DNA of 64,000 bases from Promethearchaeati archaeon. Lineage in GTDB: Archaea; Asgardarchaeota; Heimdallarchaeia; Heimdallarchaeales; Heimdallarchaeaceae. The stretch spans positions 128,001-192,000 of the forward strand of contig JABLTJ010000007.1 of assembly GCA_013166775.1 (NCBI GenBank), given 5' to 3'. Shown here piece by piece: positions 46,011-55,405 of the stretch. The notes under the pieces are model-generated. The model ran no database searches. It saw only the letters and a program-made list of their open reading frames with translations, and had not been told where the DNA came from. The position numbers were made by a program, and so were the translations under genes. The first letter of the stretch is position 1. Each line of letters starts with the position of its first letter.

Positions 46011-48305
46011 ATGGGTAATCTATTATTACTAATTGCATTATTGACTGGTGTACTTTCAATCGTAGCAGCGATCTATTTTACAATAATTGTAATGAGAGAA
46101 GATCGTGGAAATGAAAAGATGATTGAGGTCTCAGGATATATAGAAACAGGTGCGAAAAGCTTCCTCAAAGTCCAATATTTGGTATTAGGAGTATTTGTTT
46201 TCGTACTTTTCATAGTGATACTATTATTCTTACCAACAAAGATGACAGGAGGAGCAGTACCAGTAACTGCTGGAATCCTTAATTGGCAACAAGCTATTGC
46301 TTACCTTATTGGTTCAGGAGCTTCAATGTTTGCAGGATGGTTAGGATTAATAGTTGGAGTAAAGACCAACACAAGAGCAGCACAAGGAGTAACAAAAGGT
46401 ATCAAACAAGGATTTGATATCGCTTTCTTTGGTGGATCCGTTATGGGTCTAGCAGTAGTAGGTGTTGCATTAATAGGTGTTGGTGGAATCTATTGGATTT
46501 TTGCAGCAGATCCGGCTCAAGCAACCCAAATTGTTCTAGGGTTCAGCTTTGGAGCATCTGGAATTGCTTTATTCATGAAATGTGGAGGTGGAATTTATAC
46601 CAAGACCGCAGATGTGGGTGCAGATCTAGTAGGTAAAGCTGAATACAATTTACCAGAAGATGATGTTAGAAATCCAGCAACTATAGCCGACAACGTCGGC
46701 GATAACGTCGGGGATATTGCAGGTATGGGATCTGATCTTCTAGACTCTTATGTTGCATCCATCGTCGCAGCGATGATATTAGCTGTTATATTTGGTGCAA
46801 CTGGAGCTGAAGCTGATTTCGTTATTTTACCAATACTTCTATCAGCAGCTGGTTTGATTGCTTCACTGATTGGTATATTCCTAATCAAATACTTCGGTGG
46901 AGACAATCCAGGTAAATCTTTGAATCTTGGAACTTATCTTGCTACTGGACTTTTTGCACTTTTTGCAGCTGTTATCATAGGAATCATGATTGCTTCTATT
47001 CCTGATACAGTGGTTGATCGTGGTGCTGCAATCTGGCAATATTGGAAAGATTACATTGCAGTAGTTCTTGGACTGTTAGCAGGAATAGTTATTGGTTGGA
47101 CAAGTGACTACTACACAAGAGATGATAAGAAGCCAACAAGAAGTATTGCTGAGGCAGCACAAGAAGGGCATGCAGTTGTTATCCTATCAGGATTTTCCTA
47201 TGGGTTAATGAGTGTAGTACTTCCTTCTATTGGAATAATTGTAGCTATGGCAGTATCCTTCTTACTTGATGGTGTTTTTGGAGTAGCTATGGCAGCAGTT
47301 GGTATGCTAGCAATAGTTGGAACAATAGTATCCAATGATGCTTATGGACCAATTGTCGATAATTCACGAGCTATTGCTGAACAAGGTGGACTAGGAGAGG
47401 ATATCATTCGTAAAGCTGATGCTCTAGATTCAGCAGGAAATACCGCTAAAGCAATCACTAAAGGATTCGCTATCGGTGCAGCTAATCTAGCAGTACTAGC
47501 GTTGCTGTTCTCATTCGTACATGAAGCAGGAATTGCCAGGATAGATATTTTGAATGTCAAAGTCTTGATTGGTGCATTCTTCGGTGTTGTAGTTCCAGCA
47601 TTGTTTTCAGCACTACTAATTGTAGCAGTTCAAAGAAACGCTGCAAAAATGGTCTTAGAGATTAGGAGACAATTCGAAGAAAATCCAGGTATCTTGGAAG
47701 GTACTGAACCAGCTGATTTCAATAGTACAATAGCTATTGCTACAAGAGGGGCATTAAGAGAATTAGTACTACCAAGTGTGATATCTATTCTTGTTCCAAT
47801 AATGGTAGGAATAGTGTTCGGTGTAGCAGCTCTAGGAGCATTCTTAGCAGGAGCTATTCTGTCAGGATTCGTGTTCGCAATCATGATGGCTAACTCTGGT
47901 GGAGCATGGGATAATGCCAAAAAATTCATCGAAGACGGCAATCTAGGCGGAAAGGGAACTGAAGCCCACAAAGCATCTATTACTGGTGACACTGTTGGTG
48001 ATCCATTCAAAGATACTGCAGGACCAAGTATTAACACATTACTAGTTGTTATGTCATTAACAGCTTCTATCTTCATGGGTTTATTAGCCAAAATCAACTT
48101 TGGTGAAGGTTTATTCCCCGATGCATGGTTTGGTGTTGATAGTGTAACTGGTGTAACATCCGGATTATCTGGTGTCTTGAACACTGAGATTTGGGTTCTT
48201 ATTGTTGTTCTAGTTTCCGTAGCAGCTTTAGCTATCTGTCTTTGGATTGTTATCAAACTCGTAAGATCTAAGAACATCATTCAAAAACTATTAAAGAAAG
48301 AGTAA
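46011..48305 (+). CDS. hppA: membrane-bound ion-translocating pyrophosphatase (predicted K+-independent H+-PPase)
   Basis: GGIYTKTADVGADLVGK, DNVGDNVGD, GNTAKA, GDTVGDPFKD. Confidence 0.96.
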   Translation: MGNLLLLIALLTGVLSIVAAIYFTIIVMREDRGNEKMIEVSGYIETGAKSFLKVQYLVLGVFVFVLFIVILLFLPTKMTGGAVPVTAGILNWQQAIAYLIGSGASMFAGWLGLIVGVKTNTRAAQGVTKGIKQGFDIAFFGGSVMGLAVVGVALIGVGGIYWIFAADPAQATQIVLGFSFGASGIALFMKCGGGIYTKTADVGADLVGKAEYNLPEDDVRNPATIADNVGDNVGDIAGMGSDLLDSYVASIVAAMILAVIFGATGAEADFVILPILLSAAGLIASLIGIFLIKYFGGDNPGKSLNLGTYLATGLFALFAAVIIGIMIASIPDTVVDRGAAIWQYWKDYIAVVLGLLAGIVIGWTSDYYTRDDKKPTRSIAEAAQEGHAVVILSGFSYGLMSVVLPSIGIIVAMAVSFLLDGVFGVAMAAVGMLAIVGTIVSNDAYGPIVDNSRAIAEQGGLGEDIIRKADALDSAGNTAKAITKGFAIGAANLAVLALLFSFVHEAGIARIDILNVKVLIGAFFGVVVPALFSALLIVAVQRNAAKMVLEIRRQFEENPGILEGTEPADFNSTIAIATRGALRELVLPSVISILVPIMVGIVFGVAALGAFLAGAILSGFVFAIMMANSGGAWDNAKKFIEDGNLGGKGTEAHKASITGDTVGDPFKDTAGPSINTLLVVMSLTASIFMGLLAKINFGEGLFPDAWFGVDSVTGVTSGLSGVLNTEIWVLIVVLVSVAALAICLWIVIKLVRSKNIIQKLLKKE

Positions 48306-48330
48306 TTCTACTCTCTTCTTCTTTTCTTTA
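48279..48330 (+). repeat. hppA 3'-end repeat, copy 0 (resident gene end and terminator)
   Basis: ATTCAAAAACTATTAAAGAAAGAGTAATTCTACTCTCTTCTTCTTTTC. Confidence 0.8.
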
Positions 48331-48406
48331 TTTGACTCTTTATTCTTATGAACAATATTATCTTCTTTGAGGAAATCTTTTATTCCCATCTCTGGTTTTT
48401 GAACCA

Positions 48407-54829: not shown

Positions 54830-55256
54830 AACATTGACAGTCAATTCTAATTTGCTTAAAGAAAAATTAGCTTATAGTAAAAAATACATTGAGAGGCTTA
54901 GAAAAATAATTGAAGTCTCTAAGGAAGAGTTTTTAGAAGATTTTTCACTTCAATTGCAATCTGAAAGGATTTTTGAAGTTATCTCACAATTAATGTTAGA
55001 TATTTGTACACATATCGTAGCTCATTCAAGTGAAACTCCTCCATCAACATATTCTGATTGCATTAAGAAACTAGTTAACATCGGTGTCATCGGAGAGGAT
55101 GAATCAGATGATTTCATTAAAATTGTAAAAATGAGAAATTTACTAGTTCATCAGTATGGAATAGTTGATCCAGAAATTCTTTTTGAGAGTTTAAAGTTGA
55201 TAGATTCTGATTTTTCAAGATTCAAAGAAAAAATACTCTCATGGTTACAGAATTAA
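54819..55256 (+). CDS. HEPN/DUF86 ribonuclease toxin (HepT-like)
   Basis: RNLLVHQY (Rx4HxY); coupled to the MNT gene; true start may be TTG 54834. Confidence 0.88.
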   Translation: MKGETLTVNSNLLKEKLAYSKKYIERLRKIIEVSKEEFLEDFSLQLQSERIFEVISQLMLDICTHIVAHSSETPPSTYSDCIKKLVNIGVIGEDESDDFIKIVKMRNLLVHQYGIVDPEILFESLKLIDSDFSRFKEKILSWLQN

Positions 55257-55352
55257 TAACAATTTAAAAAACAAGATTTTAACCTACAAATTTCACAATT
55301 CAGAGAGTCTAGAGCTTGAGAATATTAATAGAATCTAATCAATAGTTTAAAT

Positions 55353-55405
55353 AAAAATCTTAAAGAAAGAGTAATCTTACTCTCTTCTTATTTTCTTTTC
55401 TTTTT
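55353..55405 (+). repeat. hppA 3'-end repeat, copy 5
   Basis: 55353-55394 matches 54210-54251 at 41/42 nt. Confidence 0.85.

Follow-up and report, generated by a model that had tools for sequence, protein, structure and literature searches.

The 3' end of hppA, the membrane pyrophosphatase gene of a Heimdall-group archaeon, is a gene-capture hotspot of a kind not described before. In the 64,000-nucleotide (nt) stretch of DNA analysed here (the window, G000:C75:128001-192000), copies of that gene end recur behind hppA and separate a series of unrelated gene modules, a region that an earlier note made from the letters alone had read as an integron-like cassette array. Because relatives carry the same array with differing, recently exchanged modules and no integrase, we regard the locus as a real site of gene capture. 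That recombination built the array and that its modules are mobile we consider very probable. For the whole statement, in which a hypervariable, integrase-less array anchored on the hppA 3' end is assembled by host recombination, we would put the probability at about 0.5.

The source assembly (G000) is 3.85 Mb long, with 33% GC, 115 contigs and an estimated completeness of 89%, and was compared with the 24 other genomes of its genus, for which GTDB lists 25 species genomes. Genus genomes are labelled G001-G018, contigs within them C, and L113 and L134 are metagenome contigs. A repeat profile built from four good copies of the G000 array was applied to the DNA downstream of the relatives' hppA, and Pfam annotation covered ~45 cargo families from ~15 arrays, including all G000 modules and about 30 families of relatives.

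A repeated gene end and the modules between its copies

The repeat unit is ~45-50 bp long and comprises the last ~22 nt of hppA, the stop codon, a terminator-like hairpin spanning the stop and a T-tract. Within 7 kb of G000 the hppA 3' end is found in four intact copies, hppA's own included, and two degenerate ones, all in hppA orientation (Table 1); the earlier note had listed these repeats, and reading, a repeat search and the profile agreed with it. Copies retain the last ~22-125 bases of the hppA coding sequence, and their hairpins have a purine/pyrimidine composition. Copy 4 aligns with hppA over 107 nt at 76% identity in the repeat search (54145-54251 against 48219-48325); by alignment its similarity to hppA coding sequence extends over at least 87 nt, and probably over ~125 nt, which takes it as far as the TetR stop. 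Copies 4 and 5, which flank a single toxin-antitoxin (TA) module, are identical at 41 of 42 positions, as had been counted before. The 26/27 match previously given for copies 1 and 4 was not reproduced, their best ungapped block being 27/31.

Table 1. Position of hppA, repeat copies and modules (coordinates are those of the window; aa, amino acids; ORF, open reading frame; E, E value)
Feature	Coordinates	Strand	Details
hppA, membrane H+/Na+ pyrophosphatase	46002-48305	+	767 aa; Pfam H_PPase E = 1.5e-225, aa 17-690
Repeat copy 1, hppA's own end, hairpin and T-tract	48279-48326	+	Stop 48303-48305; profile E = 7.8e-18
Module 1, lactate permease	48407-50098	+	Pfam Lactate_perm
Repeat copy 2	50112-50165	+	Left arm 28 nt; stop 50137-50139, intact; profile E = 1.5e-16
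Module 2, Fpg/Nei DNA glycosylase	50197-51042	-	Pfam Fapy_DNA_glyco and H2TH
Repeat copy 3, left arm and core only, hairpin right arm lost	51124-51150	+	Stop 51143-51145; profile E = 0.14
Module 3, two small divergent ORFs	51182-52141		154 aa (-, zinc-ribbon-like N-terminus) and 117 aa (+, membrane); weak Pfam hints only
Hybrid junction, degenerate copy (~52321 in the earlier note)	52310-52356	+	Unit left arm and core meet the amidohydrolase module's native 3' flank
Module 4, divergent pair	52363-54103		Amidohydro_2 (52363-53361, -) and TetR (53492-54103, +); Pfam
Repeat copy 4, orphan hppA 3' fragment, hairpin and T-tract	54107-54262	+	Secure from 54145, probably from ~54107; stop 54229-54231; profile E = 1.6e-18
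Module 5, TA pair	54389-55256	+	MNT (54389-54829) and HEPN/HepT (54819-55256); Pfam Polbeta/NTP_transf_2 and HepT-like
Repeat copy 5	55347-55405	+	Stop 55372-55374, intact; profile E = 3.2e-15
Remaining variable region, no more repeats	55388-58690	-	Broken HExxH peptidase-like gene (55388-56370); SBP_bac_5 protein (56711-58690)

Across 37 distinct copies the hairpin folds at -4 to -11 kcal/mol, with a mean z of -3.3 against mononucleotide shuffles, and is followed each time by a pyrimidine/T-rich run; hppA's own end is predicted to fold at -8.6 kcal/mol (z = -4.2). The stem is 9-14 bp in every copy, and stem changes are compensatory in G015 and in the B-type ends described below. A stable hairpin and a T-tract at the stop codon give the unit the features of an intrinsic terminator. 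Because every copy can form such a hairpin and T-rich run, the unit, judged from its sequence, would most simply be the hppA terminator reused behind captured genes. It has no Rfam match, and the 64-kb window contains no tRNA gene.

Low complexity (a purine run, a pyrimidine run and a T-tract) in a genome of 33% GC might suggest that ordinary terminators look alike here by chance, or that the repeats are an assembly artefact. Either explanation is extremely improbable. The core pattern yielded 3 matches where 0.03 were expected, and a pattern search found no unit elsewhere in the 3.85-Mb genome, which confines it to the hppA locus. Homology runs into the hppA coding sequence, the unit is present in more than 10 independent assemblies, and the repeats are shorter than typical read lengths. 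The motif is specific to this locus in G000 and in the relatives, which excludes the generic terminator unrelated to hppA that the earlier note had named as its own refuter.

Module contents came out of the Pfam search as first listed, with weak hints only for the two small ORFs. Orthologues of the lactate permease (68-69% nt identity) and of Fpg lie at other loci in relatives, as do homologues of the MNT-HEPN pair, which are 74-80% identical and come without the repeat. At these native MNT-HEPN, lactate permease and Fpg loci there was either no unit or too much divergence for junctions to be read. The amidohydrolase-TetR pair also turns up, with its two genes kept together, in other contexts: nt identity is 85% on contig L229/L230, where an identical protein is labelled Heimdallarchaeaceae by NCBI, and 75% in contigs of 48% GC, and the Amidohydro_2 protein is 84-87% aa identical to proteins labelled Thorarchaeota and Chloroflexota. 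Retention of the pair in contigs of 33% and 48% GC indicates recent transfer across lineages. Homology to the L229/L230 module begins at 52347, and at that junction the module's native flank shares 12-14 nt of microhomology with the loop and right arm of the unit. The backbone common to relatives resumes at 58784. Small Ras-family GTPases are also encoded in the window, in line with its assignment to a Heimdall-group Asgard genus.

Exchange of modules among relatives

A search of the genus genomes found hppA in 17 of the 24 relatives, and the same repeat arrays stand behind it in at least eight other metagenome-assembled genomes (MAGs) or metagenome contigs of the genus, with all units co-oriented with hppA. 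This gives 21 non-hppA copies, in addition to the two degenerate ones of G000. Array size is four units in G013, two to three in G001 and two each in G015 and G018; G012 has three alternative contigs of two to three units each, and G010 has one unit on C60 and two on C74. Among 63 pattern matches in a metagenome scan, the real ones were only those of L113 and L134, both of which hold real unit arrays. In the relatives the unit is restricted to hppA contigs, and the other pattern matches there were set aside as one orthologous unrelated locus with no profile match. Several relatives show extra matches to the last ~30-110 residues of hppA downstream of the gene. Many MAG contigs stop 1-4 kb past hppA, which is the pattern to be expected if the locus varies within populations.

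Comparison of these arrays by all-against-all BLAST revealed modules in different company. Module X, a wHTH-bPH pair, has module Y behind it in G001 and module Z in G012; in G010, a short stretch with no called gene separates it from module Q. Module Y comes after X in G001 and after Q in G013. Contig L134 reads P-unit-Q where G013 reads P-unit-ParE-unit-Q, a difference of exactly one repeat period. In alignments of X|Y, Q|Y and P|Q, homology switches inside the ~13-nt core at the stop codon, and the loop, right arm and T-tract remain with the downstream module across genomes. Identity between genomes is 93% for module Y, 94-99% for module X and 96.7% for the P-ParE block, and the modules have therefore moved between species recently, since hppA itself is only 71-76% identical in the same genome pairs; the upstream flank is ~88% identical. 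Taken together, these alignments show that modules are gained, lost and reordered at the units and pass between species.

The expectation that relatives would differ in this way at the repeats was thus borne out at the X|Y, X|Z and Q|Y junctions and by the ParE unit that G013 has and L134 lacks. The coincidence of module boundaries with repeats held in part: several breakpoints lie in the core, and other edges have no unit, as at the sharp left end of module X in three genomes and between Y and Z. As a separate observation on module X, the reading frame of its wHTH-bPH gene continues into the left arm derived from hppA in G010 (C74) and G012 (C192), so that the hppA tail supplies its last 9-10 residues; in G001, that frame is broken by two stop codons.

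The anchor gene has been subject to exchange as well. The C-terminus of hppA (residues ~690-767, ~75 aa) is an extra transmembrane helix with a charged tail ending in KKE, is specific to the genus and is matched by same-genus relatives only. Tails in the genus are of two types, A ending in KKE and B ending in KKD, which have only ~16 nt around the stop in common. Array units are all A-type. In G001, G012 and L113, hppA has a B-type end, and an orphan A-type 3' fragment of 270-358 nt lies behind it; such pairings imply that the hppA end itself was replaced by recombination. In G012, hppA ends are mosaics of the B and A tail alleles. The two hppA alleles of the genus are deeply divergent, at ~73% nt identity compared with ~88% in the upstream flank.

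Cargo in the relatives is diverse. By Pfam it includes M20 and M29 peptidases, PAPS reductase, TPR and wHTH-bPH proteins, SnoaL, hydrolases of the metallo-beta-lactamase and serine beta-lactamase folds, alpha/beta hydrolases, a GNAT giant, a CDF transporter, NosD-like and LVIVD proteins, an Imm5-like protein and ParE. TA-type cargo, which the earlier note had pointed out in G000, recurs in relatives, with MNT or HEPN in three further arrays. The modules might be imagined as the decayed remains of successive integrative elements (viruses or plasmids) for which the hppA 3' end was attB and which have each lost integrase and backbone. A regenerated target 3' end with orphan fragments of 87-358 nt is the classic signature of such elements, and tyrosine recombinases occur sporadically in the genus. 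We nevertheless find decay unlikely, given that the ~45 cargo families in ~15 arrays include no integrase, replication, capsid/virion or conjugation gene except one rve_3 fragment in G007, and that the modules are complete host-type transcription units with orthologues at ordinary loci in relatives. Viral contigs of IMG/VR gave four pattern matches, none of them real, and no viral or plasmid contig carries the unit.

Probable recombination at the unit

A search for the enzyme responsible returned few candidates. No recombinase was found by Pfam in or beside any array. The window has no integrase, as the earlier note had stated, and none occurs elsewhere in the G000 assembly, nor does the genome contain a Y1/HUH transposase. 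Tyrosine recombinases (PF00589) were absent from the array genomes G000, G013, G012 and G010 in a search that matched 14 of 14 control genomes; across the genus they are patchy (12-13 of 25 genomes) and never on an hppA contig. The genome scan proposed earlier, for further repeat copies and for tyrosine recombinases including XerA, accordingly found neither in G000 outside the array. An XerA-type enzyme went undetected in G000 and in about half of the genus. The only obvious candidates for action in trans are two conserved small serine recombinases of 239-269 aa, present in 23 of the 25 genus genomes (239 and 249 aa in G000, at C65:89645-90064 and C80:26358-26801); they are equally present in genomes without arrays.

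Three other genes were considered and rejected. The single tyrosine recombinase of G001 lies 8 kb from the lactate permease orthologue on another contig, and no tie to hppA emerged. Pfam gave no match for the conserved 319-aa gene at 58784-59743, which by eye resembles an alpha/beta hydrolase with a GxSxG-like motif. The ORFs at 55388-56370 look like a broken HExxH peptidase: two overlapping minus-strand frames of 226 and 109 aa appear to be one broken gene, with an HExxH metallopeptidase-like N-terminal part and a C-terminal transmembrane anchor with a basic tail. A paralogue is present at G000:C14:57500-58766.

We propose that incoming DNA would carry one unit, either as a circle excised by repeat-by-repeat recombination or as a linear fragment from the hppA locus of another strain, and would recombine with a resident unit in a Campbell-type or homology-facilitated event. 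Such an event would restore the hppA end and leave a second unit behind the new module, and novel genes would join next to a unit through microhomology. The catalyst would be supplied in trans, most likely as the host machinery for short-homology recombination rather than a dedicated integrase. Each intact unit probably doubles as a terminator for the module that precedes it, and TA modules may stabilise the array.

Several features lead us to favour host short-homology recombination. Left arms range from 13 to 358 nt across copies, hppA ends are mosaic, one module is joined through microhomology and some module edges lack a unit. The left arm that follows X in G001 resembles G001's own orphan copy and not the X modules of G010 and G012. 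The spacing of the hairpin arms varies as well, with loops of 3-6 nt that differ between copies. Other observations weigh against this explanation. The ~22-nt left arm and the core are nearly invariant in orphan copies that are free of coding constraint, and many left arms end at -19 to -25, as those of a defined recognition site would. Arrays are found only with the A-type tail, never with the B-type. We know of no demonstration in Asgard archaea of recombination through 45-50 bp of ~85-98% identity. Nor does this model account for the initial duplication of the unit or for the gain of both arms by a module.

The main rival, which we favour less and hold to be rather doubtful, is a site-specific cassette system in which the ~45-50-bp unit is the attachment site of a recombinase encoded elsewhere that excises and inserts circles of unit plus cargo, much as IntI does at attC or XerCD at pdif. 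One of the two genus-conserved serine recombinases, or an unrecognised enzyme, would be the catalyst, and their presence at 239-269 aa in 23 of 25 genomes fits. So do the conservation of the core and 22-nt left arm in 21 orphan copies, the imperfect palindrome centred on the stop codon, the 41/42 identity of the copies around a single TA module and the restriction of arrays to one tail allele. However, none of the arrays has a linked recombinase, the serine recombinases are as frequent in array-less genomes, arm spacing varies, crossovers fall at several positions, ends are mosaic, some module edges have no unit, and the unit is on no viral or plasmid contig. The earlier idea of hppA as a repeatedly used attachment site, mobilised in trans, may therefore be right, though host short-homology recombination fits at least as well; the fixed crossover point that marks site-specific integration was not seen.

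Insertion could also be replication based. If a fork stalled at the terminator hairpin, the nascent strand might switch template by microhomology, to foreign or ectopic DNA, and return upstream, a scheme that predicts a variable-length duplication of the hppA end flanking each insertion. The constant right boundary at the hairpin, the variable length of the left arm and the microhomology junction at 52347 agree with this. It leaves unexplained why the right arm and T-tract travel with the downstream module and why module order differs between species, and we think it improbable as the source of the array. A wider possibility, to which we give tentative credit, is that Heimdall-group Asgard archaea possess a so far undescribed cassette-capture platform, in which a short structured site is used by a non-tyrosine recombinase in trans or by a dedicated short-homology pathway. 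Such a platform might swap promoter-bearing modules between species and, on the same tentative footing, would be an integron analogue of independent origin.

A genome-wide screen of G000 for other gene-end arrays found none of the hppA type, and other repeat families emerged. An unrelated family on contigs C8, C69, C89, C88, C40 and C57 is a GC-rich imperfect palindrome of ~100 nt with inverted ends, present in at least 15 copies that lie 0.5-3.5 kb apart between unrelated genes, co-oriented on each contig. It is absent from the 24 other genomes of the genus and looks like another cassette array, with an attC-like shape and without canonical core boxes. At G000:C94:42220-46607, three copies of a 40-nt repeat lie between unrelated genes, 1.9-2.5 kb from one another and all in one orientation; the first is directly 3' of a gene end that encodes a basic C-terminal tail. 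G000:C35:1-9200 holds a tandem set of four paralogues (525-566 aa) whose intergenic hairpin region is conserved, and an unrelated minus-strand gene interrupts the series between two members.

Among prokaryotes, no known group is more closely related to eukaryotes than the Asgard archaea, and the means by which they take up foreign genes are still an open question. In the present case, a single locus visibly collects complete gene modules and swaps them between species, without an integrase and in genomes mostly without tyrosine recombinases. If a dedicated enzyme is at work, it would represent a new system of recombination and might supply a genetic tool to a lineage that so far lacks one. If short-homology recombination by the host suffices, a terminator repeat alone could seed a self-perpetuating integron-like array, which would bear on the unsolved origin of integron cassettes. 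Either way, the hppA locus offers a concrete handle on gene flow in Heimdall-group populations that can be tested by polymerase chain reaction.

Comparison with known systems

The attC sites of integrons are imperfect palindromes of 57-141 nt bounded by RYYYAAC ... GTTRRRY, and their cassettes are mostly single promoterless ORFs in one orientation. The hppA array resembles integrons and clusters of attC sites lacking integron-integrases (CALINs), including archaeal ones (Ghaly et al. 2022, PMC9668308), in its tandem, co-oriented, short imperfect-palindrome sites between small unrelated cargo. It also has TA cassettes, cargo common to several genomes and, as in a CALIN, no linked integrase, and its co-oriented sites do separate mobile cassettes. 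Unlike integrons, it has no IntI, and its sites are ~45-50 bp long with a 9-14-bp stem, lack R''/R' core boxes and consist of the 3' end and terminator of a housekeeping gene. A core-box pattern search found no attC core-box pair on either strand of 48200-55500, where shuffles gave a mean of 0.83. The modules face both ways, carry their own conserved upstream regions and often hold two genes, including divergent pairs. The youngest insertion is distal rather than beside the anchor, and copies 4 and 5 suggest that new modules enter at that end. Because four array genomes have no tyrosine recombinase and there are no attC core sites, the hppA array is neither an integron nor a CALIN, and the integron label of the earlier note was given up. 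Searching the archaeal integron paper (PMC9668308) and two papers on Asgard mobile elements (PMC8813620, PMC11529989) brought up neither a pyrophosphatase nor an array of this sort.

Tandem integrative elements and islands at the 3' ends of tRNA or protein genes, where Campbell integration regenerates the target 3' end, likewise leave direct repeats of that end and orphan fragments, and use one site serially. The hppA units, in contrast, measure no more than 1-2 kb and have the look of ordinary transcription units of the host, with neither an integrase nor any other mobile-element gene. Polymorphic toxin genes (CdiA-CT, Rhs) are followed downstream by orphan C-terminal/immunity arrays, in which 3' ends displaced from the anchor gene build up together with neighbouring cargo. 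The hppA locus is similar in that two divergent tail alleles displace one another, leaving a B-type end with an orphan A-type fragment (G001, G012, L113); it differs in that hppA encodes an ion pump, cargo is unrelated to the tail and most repeats include only ~22 coding bases.

Finally, the pdif modules of Acinetobacter plasmids are moved by host XerC/XerD at 28-bp sites (11-6-11) of alternating orientation (PMC6449649, PMC13141974). In the hppA array, by comparison, all units are direct, arm spacing is variable, no Xer homologue was detected, and the array sits on the chromosome, bound to one gene. Both consist of integrase-less modules of one to a few genes, often TA pairs, that are bounded by short sites and shuffled between replicons. 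The recombinase of pdif modules is supplied in trans, and the same is proposed here for the hppA array.

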